From a virus (Duplodnaviria > Heunggongvirae > Uroviricota > Caudoviricetes): DNA of 43,701 nucleotides. The notes below the pieces were generated by a model. The model did not search any database, had not been told where the DNA came from, and saw only the letters and a list, made by a program, of their open reading frames with translations. The first letter of the stretch is position 1. Each line of letters begins with the position of its first letter. The DNA lies in IMG/VR virus record IMGVR_UViG_2571042636_000008, positions 1 to 43,701 of that record; one strand, 5' to 3'. Shown here piece after piece: positions 2,598 to 43,000 of the stretch. The position numbers and the translations under genes are program-made.

Positions 2598-2815
2598 GAT
2601 TCCACTCCATAGCGGCCGCTAAGCCGCCCAATAACACTGACAAATTTCACCAGACTGACACCCATCGGCTTTACCTTCTCGTAGTGCTTGCGAAGGATGG
2701 GGGGGCATACAGCGTTCCACTTCGGTTTAGGCTTTACGTTCATCGCTTTGGTTATCTCTTCTGCGCAGCGACGAGCCTGGGCGCGGAGAGCGTTTTCTTT
2801 TTCTTCTGGCGTCAT
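2594..2815 (-). CDS. Hypothetical small protein
   Basis: 73-aa ORF translationally coupled (4-nt overlaps) on both sides. Confidence 0.45.
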   Translation of the reverse strand: MTPEEKENALRAQARRCAEEITKAMNVKPKPKWNAVCPPILRKHYEKVKPMGVSLVKFVSVIGRLSGRYGVES

Positions 2816-3339
2816 GCAGCCTCCAGATTCCCGATCCGCTTTAACTCAGCCAGCGATACAGTCGTGATGATGTGTCGCGGGGTGATGTACGGACGCCAGA
2901 TAAACAGAAGCGAGCCTTTGGGGTTGCTCCGGCGCTTTCCTGTAACGGATGCCGGAACAAACTGAACACGGCCGCCGGTTATGAGTCTGAGTTCATCAGC
3001 TGATTGCATGGCTGAAATAAACCAGCCGGTAGAAATGTCAGCCGGTAACAACATCACTACGGCCTGAGACTGCGCCCGGGATTGCTCGGCTGCCTTTTCC
3101 ACCCACGGCCCAATATCGGAATAGGGCGGGTTACACCATATTGCCCCGTATGACGTCCATTCACTGTTCAGCGAGTCATCCAGCTCAGTGAGGTAGTGAG
3201 CGCATAGCGCATTACTCTCAGAGGCTGCAGCATCCAGCCAGAAGCCAAACTCGCGGTCGAGCGCATTGAAAATTTCAATCGGTGTTTGCCAGTAGTCACG
3301 TTCATTTTTTGGAGTTTTCGACCCGCCGAAATCAGTCAT
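2812..3339 (-). CDS. Phage DNA N6-adenine methyltransferase (Dam-like)
   Basis: DYWQTP...CNPPYS (NPPY catalytic motif); start moved to internal ATG at 3339 preceded by AGAGGTG RBS; the track ORF extends to 3378. Confidence 0.8.
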   Translation of the reverse strand: MTDFGGSKTPKNERDYWQTPIEIFNALDREFGFWLDAAASESNALCAHYLTELDDSLNSEWTSYGAIWCNPPYSDIGPWVEKAAEQSRAQSQAVVMLLPADISTGWFISAMQSADELRLITGGRVQFVPASVTGKRRSNPKGSLLFIWRPYITPRHIITTVSLAELKRIGNLEAA

Positions 3340-5042: not shown

Positions 5043-6014
5043 TCAGTAACTGATACCGGTATGGGGAATGCAGCCGTCTTTAACCGCTGTAAGCACCTCG
5101 ATAGCCTGATCCCGAGTAAGGCTGGTATTGGCCAGAAGAGCTTTGACGATTTCAGTGCCTACAGCCTTGCGGTGCTTAACGTCGGCTTCGCGGCGAGCCT
5201 GCTCATCGGCTTTACGTTTCTCCTCAGCCAGGCGGGCCTGTTCGCGTTGCTCTGCCTCGCGGCGGATGCGATCGGCTTCTTCCTGAGCTTTGCGGCGCTC
5301 CGCTTCGATAGCGGCCTGCTTGTCAGCCTCAGCTTTCTTCTCGGCTGCAATGCGATCTCGCTCTGCCTGCTCAGCTTGTGCTTTCAACACAGCTTCGCGA
5401 TGCGCCGCTTCTTCACGTTCACGCTGTGCGCGCTGCTCAACTTCTCGGGCTGCTGCGGCGGCTGCCATTCGCTTAATTTCTTCTTCATGGGCAATGCGCT
5501 GGCGCTCAGCCTCAGCTGCTTTATCTGCCTGCTCTCGGTCGAAAGCGTCATTCATCAGCAGGGCCATTTCGTGGTCAGACTCAATCCGAGCTGCCAGCTG
5601 CCGATCGAACTCTTCATTCATGGCCAGTGCTTCGACGTGAAGGGCGTTCATGGCTTCTTCGGCCTTAATGCGTTCCTGCTCCGCCTCCCATTCGGTCAAC
5701 GGGCGACGCACTTCATCTTTCAGTGCATCGAGACGCTCACGGACAACGCGGCGGCTTTCATCAATCTGCTTTGGCAGCGCCTTCAGCTCAGCGACCAGGG
5801 CTTTACCTGCGTTGTCGATGTAGGTTTTAGAGCGCGCGACCTTGTGAGCCATGGATGCGATAGCATCGCGGCCTTTTTTGGTGGTCACGTCCGGCACCAG
5901 ACTGCGAGCCTCTTTTTCGATCGCTTCGATAAGCGGATCGAGTTGGTCGTTATTGGTGAAAACCGCCATCGCGTTCTTTTTCTCGATGACGACTAAATCC
6001 ATTATTTCGCTCAT
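5043..6014 (-). CDS. Coiled-coil protein, Ala/Glu/Arg-rich, unknown function
   Basis: 323 aa; long low-complexity charged helical region (AEAERQRIAHEEEIKRMAAAAAAREVEQRAQREREEAAHREA...); antisense ORFs in this region are GC-skew artefacts. Confidence 0.6.
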   Translation of the reverse strand: MSEIMDLVVIEKKNAMAVFTNNDQLDPLIEAIEKEARSLVPDVTTKKGRDAIASMAHKVARSKTYIDNAGKALVAELKALPKQIDESRRVVRERLDALKDEVRRPLTEWEAEQERIKAEEAMNALHVEALAMNEEFDRQLAARIESDHEMALLMNDAFDREQADKAAEAERQRIAHEEEIKRMAAAAAAREVEQRAQREREEAAHREAVLKAQAEQAERDRIAAEKKAEADKQAAIEAERRKAQEEADRIRREAEQREQARLAEEKRKADEQARREADVKHRKAVGTEIVKALLANTSLTRDQAIEVLTAVKDGCIPHTGISY

Positions 6015-6395: not shown

Positions 6396-6626
6396 TCATA
6401 CTTTCTCCCGCGCTTTCAACATTGCATCAGCCATCAGGTAAGAAAGCTCAGCAATAATGAAATCATCTTCACTTCTCGCAGGGTGCTCAATGCCCGCTGG
6501 ATAACCTGCCAGCCAGCCCTGCATCGCTTTTGCTGCAAAGTAATCACGAACAGTCAAACCTTCGTACCCTTGCGTTGGATATGCAGGGCCGCCATTGTTT
6601 TCTTTGCTCATTTTCCACCCCAGCAC
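6396..6626 (-). CDS. Hypothetical small protein (first gene of the leftward early operon)
   Basis: 76-aa ORF immediately downstream (leftward) of the AT-rich OL region; not Arg-rich so not an obvious N-type antiterminator. Confidence 0.45.
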   Translation of the reverse strand: MLGWKMSKENNGGPAYPTQGYEGLTVRDYFAAKAMQGWLAGYPAGIEHPARSEDDFIIAELSYLMADAMLKAREKV

Positions 6627-6779
6627 GGATAGCTAACTGCGATAACAGCAACCAAAAACGGAACGACCTTTAACCAAAAATTACGCCATGCAGGCTTGTC
6701 TTCTTCGCGGATCATCTCTTAACCTTTGCCTTATCGCGGCTAACGGGACGTTTTGACTTCACCCCGGCGTTGCCGGTGT

Positions 6780-6900
6780 TGTTTGGATAAATTGAATATA
6801 CAAAATACAATCAATCTTGTAAACACATAAAATTGTATTTTGTTGTATTTAACAACCAAGTGGTTGTTTTTGTTGTTTTTATATTTGTTATTTGGCGTAT
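6780..6900. promoter_or_regulatory. Putative OL/PL operator-promoter region
   Basis: AT-rich; contains TACAATCAATCTTGTA (TACAA-N6-TTGTA) and further TACAA/TTGTA half-sites matching the motif in the cI-cro intergenic region. Confidence 0.5.
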
Positions 6901-6931
6901 TTCAGGAGGGGATGTTGTGTTACAGGCGAAA

Positions 6932-6958
6932 AAAAAGCCCGTCACCGGGCTTTGCAGT
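6932..6958 (-). terminator. Rho-independent terminator downstream of the cI-linked membrane-protein gene
   Basis: Minus strand reads GCCCGGTGACGGGC followed by an 8-T run. Confidence 0.55.
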
Positions 6959-6969
6959 AGTGATAGTGG

Positions 6970-7404
6970 TTATTTTTGCAGGGATTTTATTGCGGAAGGG
7001 GTAAGCATAGAAGGGGGAAGGCTGCGAAGGTTATAAATGTAAGTCATATAGCACCCGCAATCTCTTGGGAGCGGTATGTCATTAAGGAATCCATCAACCC
7101 CGGGCTTTATCAATTTTTTCTTTATCGCCCATGATCCCTTAATTGTATAGATCCTCCCCTCTCGTTCTGCATGCTCTTTGCAGCCCCTTGATTTCCATAC
7201 AGCCGCAAGGGCATTGTTATCAACTGCATAACTGTGATCAGCCGCATTAAGTAGCGTTTTCGCATTTTTAACCGAAGAGTCTATGCTTACTGGTTGATAC
7301 TGTTTTAACTTCTTTTTTGTGGACTGTTTTGTATGCCAAATAAAAACGAACAGGCAACACGTAACTGCTAAGAACGCCCCAAGCAAAAAAGAGAAAAAAC
7401 TCAT
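6970..7404 (-). CDS. Membrane-anchored protein in the immunity region (rexB/sieB position); candidate superinfection exclusion or abortive infection factor
   Basis: 144 aa; N-terminal hydrophobic helix FFSFLLGAFLAVTCCLFVFIW; 20 bp downstream of cI on the same strand, followed by a terminator; more AT-rich than flanks. Confidence 0.6.
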   Translation of the reverse strand: MSFFSFLLGAFLAVTCCLFVFIWHTKQSTKKKLKQYQPVSIDSSVKNAKTLLNAADHSYAVDNNALAAVWKSRGCKEHAEREGRIYTIKGSWAIKKKLIKPGVDGFLNDIPLPRDCGCYMTYIYNLRSLPPSMLTPSAIKSLQK

Positions 7405-7423
7405 GATTACAATCCCTTAATGG

Positions 7424-8119
7424 TTAAAGTAAAACTGAATACCAGAAAACCCTTCCTATGATTTCAACATCTTGCTCCATTGCCTCTTCGTCCTCTCGGT
7501 TGAAGCTGCGTATCACAAGAATTCCACCTGGCTTACGGTATAACTGCTTTATCCGCTTTAGCTTTTCATCTCCGGCACCTGGTTGCGCGATAGCATATAG
7601 TTTTCCATCAATGATCCGTTTGTTATTGGTGTCTACTGCAACCGTTGTTCCATCTGGAATAACAGGCTCCATACTGTCTCCAGTGGCTGGGAAGCAGATA
7701 ACTCCAGAACCATCGCTGTTAGCGCCAACTCTTCGTAAAGTTGCTTTGGAGAACCTCAACTTAAAGCCATTGTGATCATCGCTTTGAATGCGACCATCCC
7801 CGCAGGCAAATTCGATATCTTTCAAAAAAGGCACTTCTACTTCGCCCTCACTTAGTGGGGTATTTTTGTCCCATGAATCGACTTGGGACCATTCTTTTTC
7901 GGGAGGAATTTCACTGGTCATTTCATGCTCCCCAGTTAAGAGCCAGCTAACTGAGCACTTTAAAGCTGCTGCCAACTCCGGCAAGTATCTTGGGCGCTTA
8001 GTCCTTCCGTCTTCGAGTTGCTGTATGGCCTGCTGAGAGGTTTTAGCTAGTGAAGCCAGCTCCGCTTGCGTCAATGATAGCTCCGCACGCCTAAGTTTTA
8101 CTCTGTCCGCAATATTCAT
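7424..8119 (-). CDS. cI: cI-type repressor (N-terminal HTH + C-terminal S24 LexA-like autopeptidase domain)
   Basis: HTH region [33 protein letters not shown]; S24 motifs GDSM and KLKRIK; start at ATG 8119 with GAGGTGGA RBS; the track's longer N-terminal extension rejected. Confidence 0.9.
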
Positions 8120-8159
8120 ATCCACCTCATAAACCGATCCCTCATGCTTACAAGAAATA

Positions 8160-8217
8160 AGGTATTTGACAAACAAGTTTGTTTGACAATAAAATACAAA
8201 TAACCTTGTAAAGGAGG
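8160..8217. promoter_or_regulatory. OR/PR region: operators and rightward promoter for cro
   Basis: Direct TTTGACAA repeats; -35 TTGACA (8166-8171) with 18-bp spacer to TAAAAT (8190-8195); operator-like TACAAATAACCTTGTA; AAGGAGG RBS before cro. Confidence 0.6.
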
Positions 8218-8221
8218 CATC

Positions 8222-8443
8222 ATGGAAACTCTTTCTGACCGCGTTAAAAAACGCCGCAATGAACTTAATTTGACCCAAGCCGGTCTTGCTGAGCTTTCTG
8301 GAACCAAACAACAGACTATTCAGCAAGTTGAATCCGGATTAACAAAACGCCCACGCAAGCTCATTGAGCTGGCGACTGCCCTTCAGTGCGAGCCACGCTG
8401 GCTTCTTTTTGGAGAGCAAGGGAATAAAACCAATGCCGCCTAA
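8222..8443 (+). CDS. cro: Cro-like HTH (XRE-family) regulator
   Basis: 73 aa; [26 protein letters not shown]; divergent from cI across the operator region. Confidence 0.8.
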
Positions 8444-15963: not shown

Positions 15964-16100
15964 GCCGTGACGTTATCGAACGCATCCGCGACCGCTGGCA
16001 AAAGCTTCGCCTCCTGCGTAGCCGCGGCACCGTGCTGGTCGACTACAAAATATTACGCAATTTCGTCCGTATCTATAAGCGCCTGGGAGAAGCAGCATGA
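15960..16100 (+). CDS. Small basic ORF (46 aa) translationally coupled between rusA and Q
   Basis: ATG 15960 overlaps rusA stop (ATGA); its stop overlaps the Q start (ATGA); [46 protein letters not shown]; below the track's size cut-off. Confidence 0.35.
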
Positions 16101-16786
16101 CAGCTCAATACTTGGAATTTGTTCGCCAGCAGCTGATAGTGGCCACCGCCGATCTGAGTGGTGCGACGAAAGGGCAACTGGTAGCTTTTGCAGAGAACGC
16201 GCAATTTACCGCTACGGCGCGCAGCCGTGGCCGGAAGAAGGTGTATAGCGAGGTGAAGCAAAAAATGGTTAACCCGGATGGACCGCCGATGAGCGGCAGC
16301 CAGTCCCGCGCTAAGGGTTCCTCAATCGCTCTCGTTCTGCCCGTTGAATACTCGACAGCCAGCTGGCGCCGCGCCCTCCTGTCGCTGGAAGACCACCAGA
16401 AATCCTGGTTGCTGTGGAACTACAGCGACAATATCCGCTTTGAGTATCAGGTAGCGATAACACAGTGGGCATGGGAAGAATTCCGTGATCAACTCGGCGC
16501 TAAGAAAGTGGCCGGCAAGACGATGGAGCGGCTGAAGAAACTGATATGGCTGGCGGCACAGGACGTGAAAGCAGAGCTGGCGGGTAAGTATGTATATCAG
16601 CACCAGGACCTTGCAGCCCTGTGTGGCGTTAAGCCTGATAACTGGTGCCATAACTACGCTGATTACTGGCGGGCTATGTGCGCCATTTTTAAGCGGCTTG
16701 ATAGCGACTCTCTTCTCTGTGCTGTGAGAACACGATCACAACAAAAAGCGACTTTTTCGCAGCAGGGTCTTGCAAAAGTCAATTAA
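16097..16786 (+). CDS. Late-gene antiterminator Q-like protein
   Basis: 229-aa ORF in Q position, followed by promoter/terminator-rich gap, tRNAs and lysis genes; family from memory. Confidence 0.7.
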   Translation: MTAQYLEFVRQQLIVATADLSGATKGQLVAFAENAQFTATARSRGRKKVYSEVKQKMVNPDGPPMSGSQSRAKGSSIALVLPVEYSTASWRRALLSLEDHQKSWLLWNYSDNIRFEYQVAITQWAWEEFRDQLGAKKVAGKTMERLKKLIWLAAQDVKAELAGKYVYQHQDLAALCGVKPDNWCHNYADYWRAMCAIFKRLDSDSLLCAVRTRSQQKATFSQQGLAKVN

Positions 16787-21393: not shown

Positions 21394-21630
21394 ATACCTG
21401 GAAATAACCGTTTCACGCAAAATTCACGCTATTCATTTTTCGACCCTGTTTATGCATGTTTTATTCACGCGCTTTTAGCCACTTAACCCCGATAAATAAG
21501 CCTTTGGCGGACATTTCATCATGGGAGGGATCCGGCTGGTGCGGGTAACAGTCATTATGTTAAGTCGGGTCGTTTTTTAACAAATTATCCTATCCGCCAC
21601 GAGTACCGAAAAAGCCGGAGAATAGTCACC

Positions 21631-23082
21631 ATGGCGAAGAAAACAGGACGAGTCGCCACGGCGGATTCGTACGATAACTTTGTTGCCCGTGTCGGAATGC
21701 AGCAGCCTAACCAGCATGCCGCATCAACCTACAGGGCGAACTATACCAGCCGCAACCGCCTGCTCATCGAGTGGGCTTATCGTTCCTCCTGGATTATTGG
21801 TGCCGCAGTCGATTCGAAAGCGGACGATATGACCAAAAAGGGCGTGCGGATCACCAGTGAGATTGACCCGAAACGTCGTGGCATTCTGGAATCACGGTTC
21901 GATGAGCTTCAGCTTTGGGATTGCATCAACGAGACGCTGAAATGGTCCCGGCTGTATGGCGGGGCGGTGGCGCTGATTCTGATTGAAGGTCAGGCACCGC
22001 TGACGCCGCTGGTGCTGGATAAGGTTGGCAAGGGCAGCTTTAAAGGTCTGGCTGTACTTGACCGCTGGATGATTAACCCACAGCTCACCAGGCGAATTAA
22101 GGCGCTTGGCCCCAATCTCGGCAAGCCAGAATTCTATGACATCGTGACGACGGCGCAGGGGCTTCCTGCGTGGACCGTTCACCACAGCCGACTGATTCGC
22201 ATGGATGGTGTGAAACTGCCCTACCAGCAGAAAATCACCGAAAACGAGTGGGGCATGTCCATTGTCGAGCGCATCTTCGATCGCCTGACTTCCTACGATA
22301 GCACCAGCGTTGGCGCCGCCCAGCTTGCCTACAAGGCACATCTGCGAACGGCAAAGATTAAAAAGCTGCGTGAAATTATCGCCATGGGCGGTAAACCATT
22401 CGAAGCGCTGGTTAAACAAATGGAGTTAGTTCGCCAGTACCAGACGAACGAGGGTATGTCCCTGTTTGATTCGGAGGACGAATTTGAAACACATTCCTAT
22501 TCTTTCGCGGGCCTGTCTGACCTGCTTAGCGAGTTTAAAGAGGATATCGCGGGTGCTGTTGGCATTCCTCTTGTCCGTCTGTTCCGCCAGTCACCGAAGG
22601 GTTTTTCAACCGGTGACGCTGACCTCGCGAACTACTACGACGACGTTGGAACGCTTCAGGAGCGAGATTTACGGCCTCACATCCGCCTGTTATTCGATGT
22701 ACTGCATCGCTCAGAGTTTGGCGAGCCGTTGCCGCAAGATTTCACCTTTGAGTTTAACCCCCTGTGGCAGATGAGCGACACCGATCGCTCCACGGTGGCA
22801 ACCAACACAACTACCGCTCTTGCAACCGCGGTGCGTGATTTGGGCATGTCGCCGGCTGCTGCTCTGACTGATTTGCGCGAGCTGTCTGACGTTACCGGCA
22901 TCGGTGCTTCAATTAGCGATGAGGATATCCAGAATGCGGCGAAACAGTGGCAGGAGACTGAATCTGAAACCAGCCCTCCGCCGCCGATCGGAGGTCCAGT
23001 ATCAGAAAAGCCTACTGGCGATAGTCGACCAGATAAATCAAATCGTCACGGGTTCCTACGATGGTTCACAGGCAAGCGCTGA
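21631..23082 (+). CDS. Portal protein
   Basis: 483-aa ORF after TerL with CCGGAG RBS; portal position and size; family (DUF1073-like) from memory. Confidence 0.75.
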   Translation: MAKKTGRVATADSYDNFVARVGMQQPNQHAASTYRANYTSRNRLLIEWAYRSSWIIGAAVDSKADDMTKKGVRITSEIDPKRRGILESRFDELQLWDCINETLKWSRLYGGAVALILIEGQAPLTPLVLDKVGKGSFKGLAVLDRWMINPQLTRRIKALGPNLGKPEFYDIVTTAQGLPAWTVHHSRLIRMDGVKLPYQQKITENEWGMSIVERIFDRLTSYDSTSVGAAQLAYKAHLRTAKIKKLREIIAMGGKPFEALVKQMELVRQYQTNEGMSLFDSEDEFETHSYSFAGLSDLLSEFKEDIAGAVGIPLVRLFRQSPKGFSTGDADLANYYDDVGTLQERDLRPHIRLLFDVLHRSEFGEPLPQDFTFEFNPLWQMSDTDRSTVATNTTTALATAVRDLGMSPAAALTDLRELSDVTGIGASISDEDIQNAAKQWQETESETSPPPPIGGPVSEKPTGDSRPDKSNRHGFLRWFTGKR

Positions 23083-23686
23083 GAGCATTGCTAAATCGCT
23101 TGTTGACTACTCCGGGGTGATCGACGACTGGGCCGAAATGGTCGGTCGAAAGATGTTTGCCCAGGTGGAGCGTGAAGAGTGGAATCAGTGGCGCTCTGTT
23201 TCGGAAGAAATATCCGCTGGTCTGCGTGACGTGATTAGTAACACTCCTGTCGGCATGGTGGCACAAGACACCGTTTACCGGCAGATTCGCTATATGAAAT
23301 CTCTGCCATTAGAGGCGGCCGGACGTGTCAGGGAGATTCAGGAGCGTGCGATAAAGGCTGTCATCCATGGTGAGCGTCCAGATCAGCTTTACGAGATGAT
23401 CATGCAATCCGGTGACGTGGCGGCCAGCAGGGCGCGGATGATAGCCCGCACTGAGATAGGCCGCGCCACTACCGCATTAACTCAGGCTCGGGCACTGTCA
23501 GTTGGTTCTGAGGGGTACTGGTGGCGCATCAAGGGGGCTGGTACCAGGCCATCGCACCGAGGAATGAAAGATAAATTTGTGCGCTGGGATAACCCGCCAA
23601 CGCTTGACGGCATGACCGGACACGCCGGATGCCTGCCGAACTGCGATTGCTGGCCAGAAGTGCAGATCCCTGAGTTTAGAAAATAA
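22904..23686 (+). CDS. MuF-like head morphogenesis (minor head) protein; start uncertain
   Basis: Phage_Mu_F-like C-terminus ...YWWRIKGAGTRPSHRGMKDKFVRWDNPPTLDGMTGHAGCLPNCDCWPEVQIP; the track ORF starts at GTG 22904, overlapping the portal by 179 nt; true start could be 22919/22934 or later. Confidence 0.65.
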   Translation: MLQLAMRISRMRRNSGRRLNLKPALRRRSEVQYQKSLLAIVDQINQIVTGSYDGSQASAESIAKSLVDYSGVIDDWAEMVGRKMFAQVEREEWNQWRSVSEEISAGLRDVISNTPVGMVAQDTVYRQIRYMKSLPLEAAGRVREIQERAIKAVIHGERPDQLYEMIMQSGDVAASRARMIARTEIGRATTALTQARALSVGSEGYWWRIKGAGTRPSHRGMKDKFVRWDNPPTLDGMTGHAGCLPNCDCWPEVQIPEFRK

Positions 23687-23724
23687 TGCATAATGCATTA
23701 GTAACAACTCGATAGGGATAGCAA

Positions 23725-24147
23725 ATGAAGCAAAACATACATAAGCTTAACGGGTTAGAATTCACCCATGAACGCGATTTTATCAACGGGCAATGGGTAT
23801 ATTCTTGGTATTTTAGACCCCTAGAGCAATCTGAATGGTGCCCATTCTCGCTGCCAACGGGGAAAACAAGAAAATCTGATATTGAGAATTTCTTAAAAAA
23901 TTGTGAAGAAGCTACCAAGTTCTATTTAGAGTGGTTAAGAAATGCCTCTGATGTGGAAGGTGCTGAACGCTATTTATTATCCGCAAAACAAGCTTGGGAA
24001 AGGATATCTAGCCCGGACTGGGGAGGGCGTGGAAGTAATCCAAACAAGGATGCCAGGAGGGTGCAACAAGCAAGAGAAACTCTCGAATCGGCAAAAGTAA
24101 AGCTTGAGAAAGCCAAGATATTACGAGAAAGATTAAATAGTAACTAA
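23725..24147 (+). CDS. Moron-encoded hypothetical protein (AT-rich insert between head genes)
   Basis: 140 aa; AGGGATAGCA RBS; visibly lower GC than flanks; own terminator downstream; Trp-rich N-terminus, basic helical C-terminus. Confidence 0.55.
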   Translation: MKQNIHKLNGLEFTHERDFINGQWVYSWYFRPLEQSEWCPFSLPTGKTRKSDIENFLKNCEEATKFYLEWLRNASDVEGAERYLLSAKQAWERISSPDWGGRGSNPNKDARRVQQARETLESAKVKLEKAKILRERLNSN

Positions 24148-24153
24148 CAACGA

Positions 24154-24179
24154 GGCCGCTATTCAGCGGCCTTTTCTTT
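24154..24179 (+). terminator. Rho-independent terminator after the moron gene
   Basis: GGCCGCT-attc-AGCGGCC followed by TTTTCTTT. Confidence 0.55.
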
Positions 24180-24202
24180 GCCCGCAATTCAGCAGGTAAT
24201 CC

Positions 24203-25405
24203 ATGAAATATTTCTTTAAAACCCGCCTGGGTAATACCCGCTTTCAACTTGCTGATGGGTCAGTCCTGTTTAAGGACGTCCCGATCGCAAGGACTGGTGA
24301 GCAGGAGTACGACGCCACAGAGCGGCCTGAGCTTGTCCCAAACGACAGAGGGAAAGTCATCGTACGCCGGATGCCAGAAGAGGTGTTCAGCGAGCGAGCC
24401 ATGGCGTCATTCGAAGGCATGGCAGTTACTATCGGCCATCCGCGAGATTTTGACGGGCAGATCATCTTTGTTACCCCTGACAACTGGCGCCAGCTGGCTC
24501 ACGGGCACATCCAGAACGTACGACGTGGCACGGACGATAAAACCGATCTGCTGATGGCTGATGTCATCGTTAAAACCCCGGAAGCCCTGCAGGCCATTGA
24601 TGATGGTGATGATGAGGTCAGCTGCGGGTACGACGCCGATTACGAACAAATTTCACCTGGTCTCGCAAAGCAATCTGCGATTACCGCTAACCATCTGGCC
24701 CTTGTCCCTAACGGGCGGGCCGGTTTCCGTTGTGCAATAGGGGATTCTATGCCAAGCACTACTAAAAACTGGTTTACCCGGCTCCTGAAGGCCCGTAAAA
24801 CCGGGGACGCTGCCGAAATGGCAAGTCTCATTGATAACCCGCCTGATGATGTCACGGGCGATAACGACGTATCGACCTCTATGACACCTGGCGGAGTGGT
24901 CATCAACCTTGCGCCGCAAAATCCGCTTCCCGGCCCGGCATTGCCTGGTACCGGCGATGCCGAGGAAGAAATTCCTGCATGGGGTAAGGCGCTGATTGAG
25001 GCGGTGGCCAAACTCACGCCTGCGGCAACTGCTCCTGGAACCGGCGATGCCGAGGACGAAGAGGAGAAAAAGGAAGAAGAGGGTAAGGTTACCGGCGACG
25101 CCGCTTACCGTGCCGATCTGATTCAGCCAGGCATCCAGTTGCCAGAGAAGGCGAAGCCGACAGCATTCAAGCGTCAGGTGCTCGCCTCTGCCGATCAATC
25201 TCTGGTGCGCTCTATTGTCGGTGATGCCGATATCAGCAAGCTGAAAAAAGCCACGGTAGATATGGCTTTCACGGCTGTTTCTGAGCTGGCGAAAAACCGC
25301 AATACCAAAACCGTCGACAGCCTGCAAACGCAGACTGCCACCACTGTTAAAACCATTGCCGGTATGAATCAGGCCGCGCAGGAATTCTGGTCTAAACGAG
25401 GCTAA
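24203..25405 (+). CDS. Head scaffolding/prohead-maturation protein (DUF2213-like N-terminus, acidic repeat C-terminus)
   Basis: 400 aa; acidic repeats PGTGDAEEE.../[17 protein letters not shown] typical of scaffolds; sits between MuF and capsid genes. Confidence 0.55.
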
Positions 25406-25408
25406 CCA

Positions 25409-25903
25409 ATGGGTAATACATTTCTTTACCGGATGCCAGCGGGCATCGCCGGGGCAATTTCTCGTCCGCAGGATCTGACGGTTGAACCTCAACTGCTGGA
25501 CTCCTCCAACCTTTTCCCCGCTTACGGCCTTGGCGGCAAGATTTCCTCCGGGAAATTTGTGCCAATCGCTGCGAGCGATACAGCGTCGGAGCTGGTGGGC
25601 ATTTATGTTCGTCCGTATCCGACCGCCAGCCAGCCGGATAAAGTCCAGCAGGTAGGCAGCGGTAAAAACTTCACCGGCGATTGCCTGGTACGTGGTTACG
25701 TCACGGTAAACATCGGCGCGGATGCATCAAGCGTTGCTCTGCATGGCCCGGTCTACATGCGAGTGGCCACACCATCCGCCTCAAGCCCTCTCGGCGCGTT
25801 CCTTGCCGCCGCTGATGGCTCGAATACCGTCCAGATCACTAACGCTTACTTCAATGGCCCTGGCGACACCAGCGGCAACATTGAGCTGGCCTTCAATATT
25901 TAA
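25409..25903 (+). CDS. Head structural protein (decoration or auxiliary capsid protein)
   Basis: 164-aa ORF directly upstream of major capsid gene, AACGAGG RBS. Confidence 0.5.
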   Translation: MGNTFLYRMPAGIAGAISRPQDLTVEPQLLDSSNLFPAYGLGGKISSGKFVPIAASDTASELVGIYVRPYPTASQPDKVQQVGSGKNFTGDCLVRGYVTVNIGADASSVALHGPVYMRVATPSASSPLGAFLAAADGSNTVQITNAYFNGPGDTSGNIELAFNI

Positions 25904-25914
25904 GGAAATCGCAA

Positions 25915-26856
25915 ATGCCAATGACATTTGACCAGGCGACAGTCGACGGCACTGGTGCCTTTCTTGTCCATGAGCTGGAGCGTCTCGATCAGACACTGAA
26001 TCTGCCGCTGGTGAATTTCACCTGGTCGCGCGATATCCAGTTGCGTGAAGACGTGTCTATTGCTGATGAGATCAGCTCGTTCACTAACACCACTTTTGCT
26101 GCTGCCGGTACGCCGAATGCTAACGGTAAAAACTGGCTTAGCAAAGCCGCGACCGCGATGGCTGGCCTTAACGTCGACATCGCAAAAACTGGCTTCCCGC
26201 TCACACTGTGGGGTATGGAGCTTGGCTGGACCGTTCCTGAATTGCAGGCAGCTGCGCAGGTTGGTCGCCCGATCGACACGCAGAAGTACGACGGCATGCA
26301 GCTGAAGTGGAACATGGACACGGACGAGCAGGTTTATATCGGCGATTCCGGTCTGAACGTTAAAGGCCTGCTGAACCTGACGCAGGTAACGCCGACCAAC
26401 GCCGCGAAGACCTGGGCGACCTCCACCGCTGACGAAATCCGGGCGAGCATTAATGCCGGGTTGAGTGCTGCGTGGGCCAACTCAGCTTACTCCATGGTAC
26501 CGACGGACCTGTTGATCCCGCCGGAGCAGTTCTCTCTGCTGGCAAGCACCATCGTATCCAGCGCTGGTAACCAGTCCCTGCTGACCTATCTGGAAACCAA
26601 CACCATCGCATACCACCAGAACGGGCGTCCTCTGAACATCCGTCCGGTGAAATGGGCGAAAGGTCGTGGCGTGTCGAACTCTGATCGCATGATGTTCTAC
26701 ACCAACGACAAGAAATACGTTCGCTTCCCGATGGTTCCGCTGATGAGCGTGCCGATCCAGTATCGCGGCCTGTATCAGCTCGTAACCTATTACGGCAAGC
26801 TGGGTGCAGTAGAGCCGGTTTATCCGGAAACTCTGGCCTACGTCGACGGCATCTAA
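25915..26856 (+). CDS. Major capsid protein
   Basis: 313 aa, AAGGAAA RBS, followed by strong hairpin; position and size; family (DUF2184-like) from memory. Confidence 0.7.
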   Translation: MPMTFDQATVDGTGAFLVHELERLDQTLNLPLVNFTWSRDIQLREDVSIADEISSFTNTTFAAAGTPNANGKNWLSKAATAMAGLNVDIAKTGFPLTLWGMELGWTVPELQAAAQVGRPIDTQKYDGMQLKWNMDTDEQVYIGDSGLNVKGLLNLTQVTPTNAAKTWATSTADEIRASINAGLSAAWANSAYSMVPTDLLIPPEQFSLLASTIVSSAGNQSLLTYLETNTIAYHQNGRPLNIRPVKWAKGRGVSNSDRMMFYTNDKKYVRFPMVPLMSVPIQYRGLYQLVTYYGKLGAVEPVYPETLAYVDGI

Positions 26857-35059: not shown

Positions 35060-35398
35060 GTGAAAATCTTCACCATCGTTTTTATCGCATTCGCATCCTT
35101 TGGGGCTACCGCCGGTGGCTTCACATCATATTGTGGACCTTACACTTTAGTAGCAAGGGAAGGTGATGTAAGCATTATCAATGGAGAGCGAGTCACCTCT
35201 CAGAAAATAAAATTATTGGGGGAGGACGGCATCAAGATAAACATGGGGATGATGCCTGCCAAAGACGGCAACAACTACGGCTTTCAGTACATCCACCGTC
35301 CTGGTAGTGAATCTCGCTTTCTGAACGTCCAGCTTCTGCAAAACAGCATGGATGCGCCGAAGATTATCGGATCCTTCCCCTGCGTCAAGGTGAAGTGA
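35060..35398 (+). CDS. Moron: small secreted (periplasmic) protein
   Basis: GTG start with GGGGA RBS; signal-peptide-like N-terminus MKIFTIVFIAFASFGATAGG; two Cys; AT-rich relative to flanking baseplate genes. Confidence 0.55.
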   Translation: MKIFTIVFIAFASFGATAGGFTSYCGPYTLVAREGDVSIINGERVTSQKIKLLGEDGIKINMGMMPAKDGNNYGFQYIHRPGSESRFLNVQLLQNSMDAPKIIGSFPCVKVK

Positions 35399-35400
35399 TT

Positions 35401-35847
35401 ATGGAATTTTTCGCAATTATCCTCTTCTTTTTGGCAATAGCCATTGTTACTAGATGGAATAACCATAAGAAAGCTAAAAAGCGGAAAGAAGAAGATAACT
35501 TTATCCATAGTATTGATTATTCTTATCGTCGTCCTGAGGTTAAATCTAAGCCTAAAAATGGTCGTAGAAGAAGCAAGGAGGAAATGCTTGCTGATGGAAT
35601 CGCATATCAAAAATTGATGGGTGATGATTTTAGAAAGTCAGCAAAAGCTACGCAAATCCAGGCGGAAAGAGTCGGATCTAAGAAATATATTTGGCGTGGT
35701 TCTGATTGCTGCCCAAATTGCGATAAGCAGAATGGGAAAACATTCTCTTGGGCAAGACCTCCAAAAACAGGTCACCCAGGAGAAGGAAAATTATGTCCTA
35801 ACGGTTACTGTCGCTGTTGGGCTGAGGTGATAATTCCGAAACCGTAA
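35401..35847 (+). CDS. Moron: membrane-anchored protein with MuF-C-terminal-like Cys/His motif
   Basis: N-terminal TM helix EFFAIILFFLAIAIV; basic linker; C-terminus YIWRGSDCCPNCD...KTFSWARPPKTGHPGEGKLCPNGYCRCWAEVIIP parallels the MuF C-terminus at 22904..23686; strongly AT-rich; terminator follows. Confidence 0.55.
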   Translation: MEFFAIILFFLAIAIVTRWNNHKKAKKRKEEDNFIHSIDYSYRRPEVKSKPKNGRRRSKEEMLADGIAYQKLMGDDFRKSAKATQIQAERVGSKKYIWRGSDCCPNCDKQNGKTFSWARPPKTGHPGEGKLCPNGYCRCWAEVIIPKP

Positions 35848-35868
35848 GGCATTACAAAATTCTATAAA

Positions 35869-35891
35869 AAGCCCACCCATGTGGGTTTTTT
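35869..35891 (+). terminator. Rho-independent terminator after the moron cassette
   Basis: CCCAC-ccat-GTGGG followed by TTTTTT. Confidence 0.55.
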
Positions 35892-35909
35892 ATTGCCTGG
35901 AGTAAGGTA

Positions 35910-36563
35910 ATGGCAATATCCGATAAAACCCGCAGTGGGGCGCTTGCTGAGGTTCTGGCGTCAGAGAGAAGGACGCTCAACGAACAACTTCGCGTTGCAA
36001 TGCCCGGCATCATCCAGTCTTTTGATCCTGACGCAGTGACCGCCGTGGTGCAGCCGGCGATCCGCTACATCGAGCGCGATAACGACGGCAACAAATTAAC
36101 GAATGATTATCCACTGCTGGTAGATGTTCCTGTCGTTTTCCCTCGCGGCGGAGGCTGCACACTGACTTTTCCTGTTAAGGCTGGTGATGAATGCCTTGTT
36201 ATCTTTGCGGACCGCTGTATTGATTTCTGGTGGCAGAGTGGGGGTATTCAGGAGCCGGTAGACGAGCGCATGCATGATTTATCCGATGCCTTCTGCATTG
36301 TCGGCCCGCAGTCGCAGGCGAAGAAAATCGGCGGTATCAGCACCAGTGCGGTAGAGCTGCGCAGTGATGACGGGGAAACAAAGTTGAGCCTTAATCCTGC
36401 CAGTGGAGCTATCAACGGCACGGCGCCGGGAGGTTTTAACCTGAACGGGCTTAAAATTCTCTCGGACGGCCGCCTGCAACTGGTGGATGGCTCAATCGTT
36501 GATAAGCATACGCATGGTGGCGTTGAGCCTGGTGGCAGCAGTACAGCACCACTCGGAGGATGA
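35910..36563 (+). CDS. Baseplate central spike protein (gpV/Gp138-like)
   Basis: 217 aa, Gly-rich C-terminus with HTHGG; GGAGTAAGG RBS. Confidence 0.6.
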   Translation: MAISDKTRSGALAEVLASERRTLNEQLRVAMPGIIQSFDPDAVTAVVQPAIRYIERDNDGNKLTNDYPLLVDVPVVFPRGGGCTLTFPVKAGDECLVIFADRCIDFWWQSGGIQEPVDERMHDLSDAFCIVGPQSQAKKIGGISTSAVELRSDDGETKLSLNPASGAINGTAPGGFNLNGLKILSDGRLQLVDGSIVDKHTHGGVEPGGSSTAPLGG

Positions 36564-38884: not shown

Positions 38885-39765
38885 TGGCGACTAACGATTT
38901 TAAGCCCTTCGCTACAGGTAGCGGGGCAAACGTATTATCACAAGCTGATTATGATGCACTGTCGGCCAGAACAACTGGCTTTTTAAGTGGCAAAGCCTCT
39001 TCGGCACAGGTCAACAAAGCTTTAAGGCAGGCATCAACTATTGCGGCGGTTGTGGCGCAGTTTATTTCTGATAACAGCGGCGATGACACCCTTGATAATG
39101 GTAATTTGCCTACCTTGCTGGCCAGTCTCGAAAGCGCCCTTCTCAAGTCCTCCCCTGGGCGGTTACAGAATATCGTTAGCTTTACCGCAAATGGGACCTA
39201 CACCCCATCTCCAGGAACCAAACATGTAAAAGTTATTGTTACTGGCGGTGGTGGTGGCGGGGGTGGTTGTCAGGGAACTTCCGGAGCTGAATCAATTTCA
39301 GGTGGTGGTGGCGGTGCTGGCGGTACGGCCATTGGTTATTTTGCCGTTACTGAATCCAGCTACGCAGTCACTGTAGGTGCTGGTGGTTCTGCTGGCGTTG
39401 GTGCTGTGCAGGGTGGAACAGGCGGAACCTCAATCATTAACGGCATTAGCGGATTGGGCGGAGATGGTGGTCAGAAATCAGGGATCACTACGCTGGCTGG
39501 TGGGAAAGGCGGTGTTTCTATTGGTGGCTCGGTTAACCTTCCCGGAGGTTACGGTACTGATGGGCAAAATGGCTCTCTGATTATCCCCGGCAATGGCGGA
39601 TCATCATATTGGGGCGGCGGTGGTCGTGGGGGCGCACGCGGGGGCGTGGCAGGGGATTGTTATGGTGCCGGTGGTGGTGGTGCATATGATGCTGCCATGT
39701 CTGGTAACTCCTACAATGGCGGACAGGGGAAAGCAGGGATTGTATATATTGAGGAATATTCTTAA
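38884..39765 (+). CDS. Glycine-rich tail fibre protein
   Basis: Conserved fibre-like N-terminus MATNDFKPFATGSGANVLSQADYDAL...; C-terminal Gly-rich repeats (GGGGGGG, GGxGG). Confidence 0.65.
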   Translation: MATNDFKPFATGSGANVLSQADYDALSARTTGFLSGKASSAQVNKALRQASTIAAVVAQFISDNSGDDTLDNGNLPTLLASLESALLKSSPGRLQNIVSFTANGTYTPSPGTKHVKVIVTGGGGGGGGCQGTSGAESISGGGGGAGGTAIGYFAVTESSYAVTVGAGGSAGVGAVQGGTGGTSIINGISGLGGDGGQKSGITTLAGGKGGVSIGGSVNLPGGYGTDGQNGSLIIPGNGGSSYWGGGGRGGARGGVAGDCYGAGGGGAYDAAMSGNSYNGGQGKAGIVYIEEYS

Positions 39766-39934
39766 TGGTAAGCAAATATGCAGTCCTGAAAGATGGCGTG
39801 GTAGAAAACATTATTGTTGCTGATGATAATTACTCTCCTGATGATTTCGAAGTCGTAAAATATAGTGACGAAACATTTTGCCAGCCAGGCATGTTGTACA
39901 ATAAAGAGGATGGTTTATTTTATGATGATAAATA
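39764..39934 (+). CDS. Small acidic ORF (56 aa) coupled to the fibre gene, possible fibre assembly factor
   Basis: ATG overlaps previous stop (TAATG); MVSKYAVLKDGVVENIIVADDNYSPDDFEVVKYSDETFCQPGMLYNKEDGLFYDDK; AT-rich; terminator follows. Confidence 0.35.
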
Positions 39935-39983
39935 ATCATCAAGAATAAATAACATTATCTACATATCTATACATTACCAATCA

Positions 39984-40006
39984 ACCGGCTTATGCCGGTT
40001 TTTTAT
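39984..40006 (+). terminator. Rho-independent terminator
   Basis: ACCGGC-ttat-GCCGGT followed by TTTTTTAT. Confidence 0.6.
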
Positions 40007-40016
40007 TGGGGCGACC

Positions 40017-43000
40017 ATGAGTGAATACGATACCGGCAATCCTGTGCCGTCTGCATCAATGCCTGATGCATGGGATAATATGCAGTCTATTGACAAGTTC
40101 GTTAATAGCAGCGATGAAACCATTACCACACGCACGGGCGAACAGTTAGATACTTTGCATGGCGTTAATGTTAAGGCGGACAACCAGCTAACGCAGCAGC
40201 AAGCAGACTTTGAAACCTCGCAAGAAGAAAGGGATGCTGTAGTTGAGGAAACCAGGCAGAACCTGATCCCTCTCAGCCGGCAGTATATGACACTGGCCGC
40301 GGCACAGGCAGATATTGCTAATATCCCCGAGGGGAGCACTACGTATTACCGAAGCCCTGACGATAGCGCTCTTGCGATAGAGGCAATCAACAACGCCGGT
40401 ACGCTGACCGCAACCGGGAGAAAAATGCCAGCGTACTCTTCTTTGCGCAGAGGCAACATTTTATTCGACGCATTTAATGAATATTCCTCAAGCCTTTTAA
40501 CATTCGCTAACTGGGATTGGTATAAAGGCGCTACGCCAACATTTTCTACTACTGATGTTAATTTGCCGCTTCCAACACCTGTTATTCAAGCTTCTGGTGT
40601 AACATCGTTTGATAAATATTACGATGTGTCAAAATTACAGGTAAAACCAGGAGACACTTTAGCTTTCTCTGTTTTGGTATGGTTCGAGAACGCTGGAGGC
40701 AAGTTACAGATTTATTGGCTTGATTCAGCAGGAGTAACCATCACTACAGGGGAGGCCTCTCCACTGGTTGCTGGTATATCCTCTCCGGTTGTGGTCATTG
40801 CTGTGCCATCTGGCGCATCATCCATACGAATTCGGGTGCAAAACACTGTGTCAGGGGCGTTCAAAATCGGTGTCTATGCCGCAGCTATTGGTGATGTTAC
40901 TCCTGAATTCACAAGGTCTTTCCCTTCAAAAGCGTACCAGGAGGCATTGGGTACCCCTGATAACCTCGTGTACGACCCTTTTGGCGAGATGCTTTCCGTT
41001 CGTCCTAAGCAAGGACTTCCTGCAGGCGTGGTTGACGCCATGAGTTACGCAGGAACATTGATTCAGAACAGCGCAAATTCACCATGGGGTAAGACCGGGA
41101 TCCAAAACACGTCAGGAGTTGGTGCTGATCGTATTATTTCTCTCAGTTCGATGGGGGTTAAGCCGGGAGACACAATCACTGTCCGTCTGGCTGCATGGTT
41201 CGCGTCAACGGGTGGCACGTTTCAGGTTTTCTGTCGTAATGCATCCGGAGTACTTTCTTCGGCAACTATTGCCGCATCAGCATCCGGCTTTAATGATGGA
41301 AGTACCACGCTGACAATACCAGCATCAACGACATACCTTACGCTTCGCGCATCAGGGGCTATGGTCAAGGAGCTGGTTGCCATAGGTGTAGCTTTCGGAC
41401 GATCTCGCCCTGAGTTTATTTACGGTAGCCTTCCAGCAGAGTATTCAGGATACCAGCGCCAGCAGATTAACCTGTGGCCTGATCCCTGGTATCGCCGCTA
41501 CGAGTGCGGGGAAACGTGTATTGATGGTTGGGGTCCTGCTCAAGTAGCAGGGGTTTCACTACCAGCATATGTTGCGGATTATTCTGGCAGCCCGTTTCTT
41601 AGGAAAAAATCTCTGATTATCCCAGTAGGTGGTGGTCAGACGGATATTAACATTTCAGCAAAGCGGCTTGGACTGCGTGCTGGAGATTCGCTGACAGTAG
41701 CGCTGGGTGTGGTATCGTCTCAGGCAATCAACGTGGCAGCATATTTCCGGACGGCTAGCGGGACTGTTATTAGTGACAGTTCGTCTCAGTTGTTCCAGTT
41801 CCCAACCCAGCAATATCAGACTCTGGTTCGCACAATAGCTATCACCCAGACTATTGTTGATACGGCTGGATATCTGCAAATCCGCCTTATGAATGGGCAG
41901 ACTGTTGGCGCTGCAGGTGTTTATGTTGTTGCCAGGGGGCTCTTTGTTGGGAATGGCTCTCCTGTACTGAGTGATGATACGTACCGACAGGATGTCGATT
42001 ACACAACTTCCAGAGCATTCACGTTAAATCAGGATTCACTCAGAGAGACACATAAGCGCCTGATGAACAGGCGGCTTTCTCAGTCAGCAACACTGGTAAC
42101 AGCGCACATTGGCGATAGCTGGACTCACCTGTGGAACCGATGGAGCGGAATTTTTGCCGGAAAAATGCAGGCTGACTATGGCAGTGCAGGTATCGGCTAT
42201 ATCGGATTTGGCTATCCGTCTGAGGCGGGTTTCGGGCAGTATAACGGCAATATACTTGGTCAGATAACTTTGACCAAAACAGGAACATGGACTCCGACAT
42301 ATGCGGCAGCACAGAGCGCAGATATTTGTAGCGTCTCGTCTTCTGATACCACCGCTACTTTCAGGGCGAACGGTATACCGGCAAATGCATCGTCAGTCCG
42401 CCTTTTTGCTAAACCTCAGGGGAGTGTTAAATACAGCACAGATGGTGGAGTTAACTGGACAACTATCGACCTGAGCACGTTCACTGACCTTGCGGTTGTC
42501 AGCCTCACGGTACCGGCAACAGCTTTCAATATCTGGTTCAGTCCGGTATCAGGAACCGTTGAACTGTACGGTCTGGATGTGCAGACCGCGACAGATGGTG
42601 TCCGGTCTCACAAGCTGGGTGCGACGGGGAGTTCTGCTCAACAATGGGCGGCGCAGGTTACCAGCGCAACATGGAAAGCAGCATTCACCGCGCTGGCCCC
42701 CAATCTGGTGACAATTCTGCATGGGACCAATGACCAGACATCATCCCGTGATCCATCCGCGTTTGCTGCCGATATTCAGACGATAATCACAGCAGTTCGC
42801 ACTGCATGCCCGTTGGCTGATGTTCTGGTGATCATGCCATGTGAAAACCAGAGGAATAACAATGTGGCAATGGCGGCGTATGCGTCTGTTGTACGGGATG
42901 TTTGTGCGCTAAACAGGGTGGCTTATCACAATCTCCAGATTGACTACGGAGACAAGCCATCTGATTACGCATCGACATCTCCACGCAACTGGTTCAATGC

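Follow-up and report, generated by a model that had tools for sequence, protein, structure and literature searches.

A probable moron-type accessory gene occupying a hypervariable slot within the head operon of a lambdoid Escherichia coli prophage

RESULTS

An AT-rich gene between the MuF and DUF2213 genes

The stretch of DNA analyzed here, in the following called the window, comprises all 43,701 nucleotides (nt) of the IMG/VR virus record IMGVR_UViG_2571042636_000008 (Caudoviricetes) and is a lambdoid Escherichia coli prophage. In its head operon an open reading frame (ORF) of 140 codons, referred to as ORF140, is located between the gene for the head-morphogenesis protein MuF and the gene for a DUF2213 head protease/scaffold protein. 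It is preceded by a palindrome and by -10-like hexamers and followed by a terminator-like hairpin (Table 1). An initial annotation of the window had described this region as an AT-rich moron with a palindromic upstream element and a terminator of its own that interrupts an otherwise tightly coupled operon. The term moron is used here as defined previously (PMC4378225, PMC6316719).

ORF140 starts 38 nt past the MuF stop codon (TAA, 23684-23686) and ends 55 nt ahead of the DUF2213 gene. With its ATG start codon and an AGGGA Shine-Dalgarno sequence, which is kept in other ORF140 alleles as AGGGA, AAGGGAG or GGAGG, the proposed reading frame of 140 amino acids (aa) is a real gene. Among 5426 complete E. 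coli genomes, 44 contain the ORF140 region (23680-24160) with at least 99% identity, and RefSeq lists the protein there as a 'hypothetical protein' (WP_029363697.1); a full-text literature search by the accession WP_029363697 found no mention of it.

The lower-GC island was confirmed by GC window analysis. ORF140 has a GC content of 0.41 (0.44, 0.40 and 0.38 at the first, second and third codon positions) as compared to 0.52-0.57 overall and 0.57-0.69 at third codon positions for the genes of TerL, portal, MuF, DUF2213, cement protein and major capsid protein, and it falls within the lowest 1.7% of the 423-nt GC windows. In all slot alleles of the ORF140 family the GC content is 10-17 points below that of their own flanks.

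A 7-bp direct repeat, TAACAAC, flanks the gene (23702-23708 and 24145-24151), its second copy including the stop codon. An interpretation as target-site duplication was rejected, because other alleles lack the repeat, and the junction found in Klebsiella phage Mulock (see below) would not result if the DNA between the copies were deleted. The repeat pair is probably due to chance.

Close relatives lack exactly this piece of DNA

Comparison with relatives that lack the insert revealed a precise absence. Twelve Klebsiella phage records, among them Mulock (source wastewater, host Klebsiella pneumoniae), Wanchaivirus PDP110P2, GZ7 and RCIP0034/0098, match the MuF-DUF2213 region with 89-96% nucleotide identity over a span of 2036 nt versus 2501 nt. 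In the alignment the MuF stop codon is directly followed by the hairpin and the DUF2213 leader, leaving a spacer of 51 nt. Therefore, the missing piece corresponds to positions ~23688-24152 of the window, and exactly 465 bp are without counterpart in these 12 phages and in about 30 E. coli prophages. The module is found in 79 complete E. coli genomes, of which 44 carry ORF140 and about 30 do not (span of 1036 versus 1501 nt).

At the protein level, the 12 Klebsiella records are 99% (portal), 93-99% (DUF2213), 97-99% (cement protein), 98-99% (major capsid protein) and 94% (MuF) identical to the window; for Mulock the value is 99% for all of these proteins except MuF (94%). Since phages such as Mulock have near-identical head genes and no ORF140, the gene is dispensable for virion production. 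The assumption that all modules without ORF140 belong to defective prophages does not stand, Mulock, GZ7 and the RCIP phages being counterexamples. A structural protein would be expected to be conserved in all related phages, and such a conservation had been named initially as the observation that would speak against a moron; instead, many close relatives have no ORF140.

Variability of the slot was assessed in 80 further IMG/VR loci retrieved by the N-terminal domain of DUF2213, 75 of which contain both flanks. In these 75 viral contigs the slot is empty (~51 nt) in 31 cases, occupied by a member of the ORF140 family in 8, and filled with other inserts of 141-934 nt in 36. The other inserts are mostly AT-rich (GC mostly 0.39-0.49), contain no Pfam family as far as they were tested, and include unrelated ORFs of 68, 54, 66 and 76 aa as well as one of 214 aa. 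At least 10 different small cargoes alternate between MuF and DUF2213, all of them without family annotation. One cargo ORF of 64-71 aa with a normal GC content of 0.54 and no Pfam match (positions 2333-2527 in Klebsiella phage ST16-OXA48phi5.2, locus L002; also in L119, L072, L091 and others) is inserted downstream and not upstream of the hairpin; the slot therefore has two insertion sub-sites. Thus, the slot is hypervariable, and the swapping or loss of ORF140 is not tied to its flanks. With its dispensability, its foreign composition, its location between two head genes that are adjacent in close relatives and its hypervariable slot, ORF140 is in agreement with the moron proposed initially.

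Two other slot contents were noted. A recurrent AT-rich stretch of ~210 nt (GC ~0.42) without a consistent ORF lies just upstream of the hairpin in L084, L089 and L094 (slots at ~2740-3000) and forms part of the slot content of L091, L103, L131 and L134 as well. It contains the repeated motifs AAATGTTAT..AAAATGTTRT and GGTAAGAACCMTTATGTTAAATAG, at times adjoins a small ORF, and could be a small RNA or regulatory element. The 773-nt insert of L105 encodes the ORF of 214 aa, which has Cys-rich and 'YGGRG...DR(I/V)D' motifs, gave weak helix-turn-helix matches alone in Pfam (AbiEi_4, HTH_psq, E ~1e-3), and presumably resembles an HNH/AP2-type homing endonuclease.

The downstream hairpin belongs to the backbone

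The intrinsic-terminator-like hairpin downstream of ORF140 is part of a 66-nt stretch (24140-24205, hairpin and a second small stem) that folds at -23.1 kcal/mol, with z = -4.3 versus shuffled sequences. All 14 aligned spacers contain hairpin and U-run, among them those of Mulock and ST16-OXA48phi5.2, which are without ORF140; in the phages lacking the gene the hairpin comes directly after MuF. Distant alleles have a different stem, GCTCAC/GTGGGC instead of GGCCGC/GCGGCC, with two compensatory pairs. As the hairpin also occurs in phages without ORF140, it is a backbone element and not the terminator of the cassette. Of the terminator proposed for the insert, the hairpin with its U-run was thus recovered, but it is not the insert's own, and in this respect ORF140 departs from the usual description of a moron. 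A non-coding RNA was considered as well and rejected, Rfam giving merely a sub-threshold match to the Trp leader, on the hairpin.

Because a Q antiterminator drives the late operon in lambdoid biology, late transcription would be expected to read through the hairpin, and other transcripts would be expected to stop there. A match to the hairpin and the DUF2213 leader was also seen in Elizabethkingia phage EKP1 (OM284015.1, 4048-4098; 86% over 50 nt), a host label that is unexpected for an enterobacterial module.

A chance palindrome and a recurrent -10-like box upstream of ORF140

The palindrome pointed out in the initial annotation is present and begins at the MuF stop codon, but its significance was not confirmed. 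It arises from a 7-bp tandem duplication (TAATGCA x2), of which near-identical prophages (locus L017, and E. coli matches spanning 1494 and not 1501 nt) have a single copy. Perfect inverted repeats of this size occur twice in the window, as compared to 2.4 +/- 2.1 times in shuffled sequences, and the palindrome is not conserved in K. oxytoca, Citrobacter and other diverged alleles from uncultured viral contigs. A function as conserved operator was rejected on account of this chance-level frequency, the polymorphic copy number and the lack of conservation.

In 16 of 18 alleles a hexamer matching TATAAT in at least 5 of 6 positions begins between 44 and 30 nt ahead of the ATG, whereas composition-matched shuffles gave 2.6 +/- 1.4 alleles (maximum 8 in 1000), a control which overstates the significance as the 18 alleles are phylogenetically related and not independent. 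The hexamer reads CATAAT, TATAAT, TATCAT or TATTAT in the different alleles, and the 16 include Morganellaceae alleles from a different genomic context. A consensus scan for complete sigma-70 promoters in 22800-24800 gave none. Since neither a -35 element nor a promoter call accompanies it, the -10-like box is regarded as a putative promoter element.

The ORF140 protein has no recognizable family

An AlphaFold2 model of ORF140, built from only three sequences, reached a predicted local distance difference test (pLDDT) score of 91.3 and a predicted template modelling (pTM) score of 0.75. It shows a 4-stranded antiparallel sheet (residues 6-41) followed by helices 50-58, 60-74, 77-94 and 106-139. 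The loop between the last two helices is conserved and Gly/Asn-rich, P-D-(W/F)-(D-P)-G-G-x-x-N-N-P-(G/N)-K, and G10, W28, P32, K50, A63, Y67, D76, A80, N105, P106 and A130 are near-invariant. The description of a Trp-rich N-terminal half and a basic helical C-terminus was accurate: four of the six Trp among the 140 residues are in the N-terminal half, and helix 106-139 contains 10 K/R versus 5 D/E. No signal peptide or hydrophobic segment was seen in the sequence. Thus, ORF140 is predicted by the model to be a well-folded soluble alpha/beta protein, representing a small unannotated family.

It was likewise correct that the protein belongs to no recognizable family. The best Pfam match had 13.6 bits versus a cut-off of 27.1, with no helix-turn-helix match; NCBIfam gave no match, none of 31 family members matched PHROGs v4, and no PADLOC-DB 2.0 defence family was found at E <= 1. 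A sequence-profile search of the PDB returned a designed TPR protein alone (E 0.003) and no anti-CRISPR (Acr) protein. Foldseek listed AcrIF24 and AcrIF entries at insignificant E values of 0.5-1.2, a search that covered the Acr families with a solved structure.

Probable long residence of ORF140 in the slot under purifying but relaxed selection

A scan of IMG/VR yielded 34 family loci, 26 of them in the MuF-DUF2213 slot, with homologues that are 41-100% identical. The head modules of these 26 loci range from identical down to 53% (portal), 47% (MuF) and 70% (major capsid protein) identity, and prophages of K. oxytoca (protein 76% identical) and Citrobacter (55%) have the same arrangement. A recent interruption of one operon, as the initial annotation implied, is therefore not borne out, since homologues hold the slot down to ~53% portal identity. 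Modules without ORF140 are nested among those with it: the portal of Mulock is 99% identical to that of the window and the portal of the ORF140-bearing K. oxytoca prophage 95%. For this reason, long residence with repeated loss or replacement appears more parsimonious, on the basis of these identities, than repeated gain.

Versus loci L023 and L026, nucleotide identity amounts to 54-63% inside ORF140 and 70-95% in the flanks, with a sharp recovery at the hairpin. The ratio of non-synonymous to synonymous substitution rates (dN/dS) of ORF140 is 0.21 against the K. oxytoca allele, while head genes have values of 0.05-0.12, and among close E. coli alleles 8 non-synonymous and 2 synonymous differences were counted. 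Thus, ORF140 is under purifying but relaxed selection. The synonymous divergence (dS) of ORF140 was found to be below that of MuF, DUF2213, cement protein and major capsid protein (0.012 versus 0.09-0.18 for L020; 0.62 versus 1.09-1.43 for L004), the exception being the portal gene in the L004 pair (0.54), and its non-synonymous divergence equals or exceeds that of all flanking genes but one (cement protein, L004 pair). This pattern suggests either a recent spread of the allele over diverged backbones or synonymous sites constrained by composition.

The family travels on several kinds of mobile element

The ORF140 family is small; a profile search (E <= 1e-3) retrieved 49 representative clusters among 1.84 billion. 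In prophages of the Proteus/Providencia/Morganella type a family member preceded by a TATAAT box and followed by a hairpin lies between lysis genes (Rz) and terS, the slot in which Morganella phage IME1369_01 carries, at the equivalent position, a lipoprotein Blc moron. Other members were found near a transposase and phd/relE in a prophage of Vibrio anguillarum, between integrase and AlpA/VapE in an island of V. crassostreae that contains GmrSD-N and AAA_15/DUF3696 genes as well, and on an Enterovibrio plasmid-like contig with Rep3, ParA, ParB and a resolvase. An Agitococcus sp. metagenome-assembled genome (L056) contains two diverged paralogues, at 5053-5556 and 6934-7416, 1.4 kb apart. No neighbouring gene is common to the contexts outside the head operon, and the genes downstream of distant members are mutually unrelated, which led us to reject a conserved partner gene. 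Overall, ORF140 and its relatives move with several kinds of mobile element, in the form of a single gene. A tblastn search for contexts of the distant subfamily in plasmids found none, and a degenerate DNA pattern for the DPGG..NNPG loop hit one contig of a metagenome-assembled genome among the genomes and none among the viral contigs.

Two further observations concern individual members. Near the L056 paralogues is an ORF of 336 aa beginning MSKETEIAWTDSTFNPWWGC, which we take to be phage Gp37/Gp68-like. The metagenomic protein P0010 (325 aa) is the only fused member seen; it has an ORF140 domain at 144-279, an N-terminal extension of 143 aa and a C-terminal tail with a weak similarity, below the cut-off (E 1.1e-3), to the toxin-binding end of ParD antitoxins.

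Genomic setting

The window contains a CI-like repressor gene (7424-8326, minus strand), the genes for replication protein O and RusA, the Q antiterminator gene and a lysis cassette, and 3' of the latter the structural module of an E217/Pa193-type myovirus with the head-gene families DUF1073, MuF, DUF2213 and DUF2184 (Table 1). RefSeq also annotates MuF in the identical E. coli locus. The operon is compact except for the TerL-portal spacer (21394-21630), which is unusually long with 237 nt and has a GC content of ~0.43-0.47.

Table 1. Positions in the window of ORF140, its flanking elements and selected other genes
Feature	Position	Strand	Remarks
Q-family antiterminator	16097-16786	+	PF06323, E 1e-79; upstream of lysis and late genes
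Portal	21631-23082		Pfam/PHROGs
MuF head-morphogenesis gene	23138-23686	+	short type, 182 aa from annotated ATG; PF04233, E 2e-12; phrog_324
Overlapping -10-like hexamers AATAAT, CATAAT	23682-23687, 23689-23694	+	second one 30 nt upstream of the ORF140 ATG
17-nt palindrome TAATGCATAATGCATTA	23684-23700	.	begins at MuF stop codon; read from sequence
Shine-Dalgarno sequence AGGGA	23714-23718	+	6 nt ahead of ORF140 start codon; read from sequence
ORF140	23725-24147	+	140 aa, ATG start; predicted soluble protein, unannotated family
Intrinsic-terminator-like hairpin GAGGCCGC-TATT-CAGCGGCCTT and U-run	24152-24180	+	backbone element
DUF2213 leader and ribosome-binding region GCCCGCAATTCAGCAGGTAAYCC	24181-24202	+	conserved in spacer alignments
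DUF2213 (Pa193_gp24-type) head protease/scaffold	24203-25405	+	PF09979, E 4e-36; phrog_1961, phrog_530 'head maturation protease'
Cement protein	25409-25903		Pfam/PHROGs
Major capsid protein	25915-26856		Pfam/PHROGs

Three more low-GC islands (423-nt windows, GC <= 0.42) were detected, which may represent other accessory genes. The first (~6521-7714) covers an ORF of 144 aa (6970-7404, minus strand) that adjoins the CI-like repressor gene and has no Pfam match, the second (~35141-35934) covers the baseplate-region ORFs 35060-35398 and 35395-35847, and the third (~39641-40264) lies directly upstream of a tail-fibre-like ORF of 1018 aa. ORF 35395-35847 (plus strand, 150 aa) gave a sub-threshold Phage_Mu_F match (E 1.2e-3, 20 bits versus a cut-off of 29.6), which is odd for a location in the baseplate region and probably spurious.

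DISCUSSION

Overall, the locus is probably best explained by an accessory cassette of the moron type that occupies a hypervariable cargo slot in the head operon, and there is little doubt that ORF140 is an accessory or moron gene. According to this explanation the backbone would consist, in this order, of the MuF stop codon, the slot, a conserved intrinsic terminator, a conserved leader and the protease/scaffold gene. The slot of this prophage would hold a 465-bp AT-rich cassette made up of a -10-like box, the 140-aa ORF and, between them, a short leader that includes the Shine-Dalgarno sequence. During lytic growth ORF140 would be transcribed within the Q-antiterminated late transcript. Additional expression in the lysogen or at an early stage of infection may come from a weak -10-only promoter, and ORF140 transcripts that are not antiterminated would end at the backbone hairpin, sparing the scaffold and capsid genes.

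With regard to function, a role of ORF140 in the conflict between element and host is slightly favoured. Since no enzymatic motif, partner gene or membrane segment was found, the protein would most likely act as a binder of some other protein or of a small ligand. Anti-defence specifically, i.e. inhibition of a host immunity system, is our first guess, a tentative one, with prophage defence or exclusion following closely behind.

Several points weigh against this interpretation of the cassette and its function. The upstream box is not part of a complete sigma-70 promoter and has no -35 element, and its recurrence was counted in related alleles. Expression could be late only, which would be unusual for an anti-defence gene. 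The slot of the window holds ORF140 alone, without an aca-type helix-turn-helix repressor gene. Furthermore, that the gene has kept its position within the head module for so long could reflect a head-related role.

A more far-reaching version, which is possible but doubtful, is that ORF140 founds a new anti-defence family whose fold is without detectable relatives in PDB or BFVD and which temperate phages, satellite-like islands and plasmids carry as a cassette of one gene. Placement in the late operon would then serve to counter an immune sensor triggered by portal, terminase or capsid. Alternatively, ORF140 might be loaded into the capsid via MuF and portal and be injected together with the DNA.

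Defence, superinfection exclusion and lysogenic conversion are the classical functions of morons, and ORF140 might be such a factor, expressed from its own -10-only promoter in the lysogen with transcription stopping at the hairpin. We consider this unlikely, even if the layout of -10-like box, ORF and terminator and the AT-rich composition are typical of morons. The company kept by some relatives also speaks for such a factor: one lies in the integrase island beside the GmrSD and AAA_15/DUF3696 defence-type genes, another adjoins a toxin-antitoxin module in the Vibrio prophage, and the lysis-terS slot of IME1369_01 is occupied by the lipoprotein Blc moron. However, no PADLOC model was matched, a soluble protein of 140 aa without any enzymatic, nucleotide-binding or membrane feature would be an unusual stand-alone effector, the -10-like box comes with neither a -35 element nor a promoter call, and the terminator also occurs where the cassette is absent.

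It is improbable that ORF140 is a non-essential head-associated protein, either a procapsid cargo ejected with the DNA, as T4 IPI* and P1 Dar are, or an assembly helper of MuF or the scaffold. The gene has the orientation of the head genes, short spacers and a good Shine-Dalgarno sequence, and its homologues keep their position in modules from 99% to ~53% portal identity. Moreover, MuF proteins are bound to the portal and have been proposed to deliver cargo (PMC5576092, PMC6316719). What weakens a head-related role is that close relatives make virions without ORF140: it is absent from phages that form plaques or were isolated as virions and whose portal, scaffold and capsid proteins are 93-99% and MuF 94% identical. 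Relatives of ORF140 also occur far from head genes (lysis-terS slot, integrase island, plasmid-like contig), many unrelated small ORFs alternate with it in the slot, and there is no similarity to the C-terminal part of the long MuF proteins in phrog_324.

That ORF140 is an orphan immunity protein of a MuF polymorphic-toxin system, directed against toxin domains that related phages bring in upon superinfection and kept after MuF lost its toxin domain or without MuF ever having had one, is highly improbable: although ORFs of <150 aa directly downstream of muf accompany 89% of the MuF-toxin and 25.5% of the short muf genes (PMC5576092), and fast divergence and movement between elements are reminiscent of immunity genes, all 111 related MuF genes are short without a C-terminal toxin extension (the ORF ends <=7 residues from the aligned domain in 109 loci and +32 residues from it in the other 2), no toxin-like gene lies beside family members in other contexts, and no known Pfam immunity family was matched. 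A toxin and immunity pair formed by MuF and ORF140 was rejected on the same grounds, with PF04233 being the sole domain detected in MuF of the window.

The arrangement as such, a moron in a head operon, is known and has precedents in SPP1 and Pseudomonas phages; the ORF140 protein family itself is uncharacterized. Examples of lambdoid morons are HK97 gp15 and lambda bor/lom. Like these, ORF140 is a single gene between conserved late genes, absent from close relatives, of deviant composition, and accompanied by a promoter-like box and a terminator; unlike them, it has its terminator in the backbone and a -10-like element alone, and the gene has kept to its slot while the module diverged deeply, so that it is no recent addition.

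In SPP1 the interval from gene 7 (MuF) to gene 11 (scaffold) is occupied by morons, ORFs 8-10 (PMC6316719). The junction of MuF, morons and scaffold, the bracketing transcription signals, an unknown function and a position outside the conserved assembly order are common to both cases, whereas the proteins are unrelated, SPP1 is a virulent siphovirus of Gram-positive hosts, and the SPP1 segment holds a replication origin (oriR). Close in position are also the immunity ORFs downstream of muf (PMC5576092), which like ORF140 are directly 3' of muf, shorter than 150 aa and without a known domain; in contrast to that system, MuF of the window and all 111 relatives are short and have no toxin domain.

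In Pseudomonas Mu-like phages, whose head families are those of Mu H, G, I and T, the low-GC region RGP G is located, going by gene numbering, just upstream of the protease/scaffold gene. In P. aeruginosa Mu-like phages this region holds anti-CRISPR genes (PMC4378225). This acr-aca locus and the slot described here both contain low-GC, hypervariable, small and unrelated ORFs in the head region that are dispensable and differ among close phages. They differ in that the ORF140 slot is without an aca-type helix-turn-helix regulator, ORF140 has no significant match to solved Acr structures, and the head families are DUF1073, MuF, DUF2213 and DUF2184 and not those of Mu.

Our results define a well-delimited hypervariable slot, bordered by the end of MuF on one side and by terminator and leader on the other, in a widespread enterobacterial group of temperate phages. 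The conserved terminator upstream of the scaffold and capsid genes suggests that the slot is insulated, such that promoters brought in with the cargo are kept off the head genes in the lysogen. Since ORF140 is confidently folded in the model, unannotated, and also found in accessory regions of other elements, once near defence-type genes, it lends itself to screens for anti-defence or defence as an inexpensive and specific candidate. Should it indeed found a new anti-defence family, the MuF-scaffold slot would be the enterobacterial counterpart of the Pseudomonas anti-CRISPR locus, and its other occupants, including the ~210-nt AT-rich element, would constitute a ready list of further candidates.

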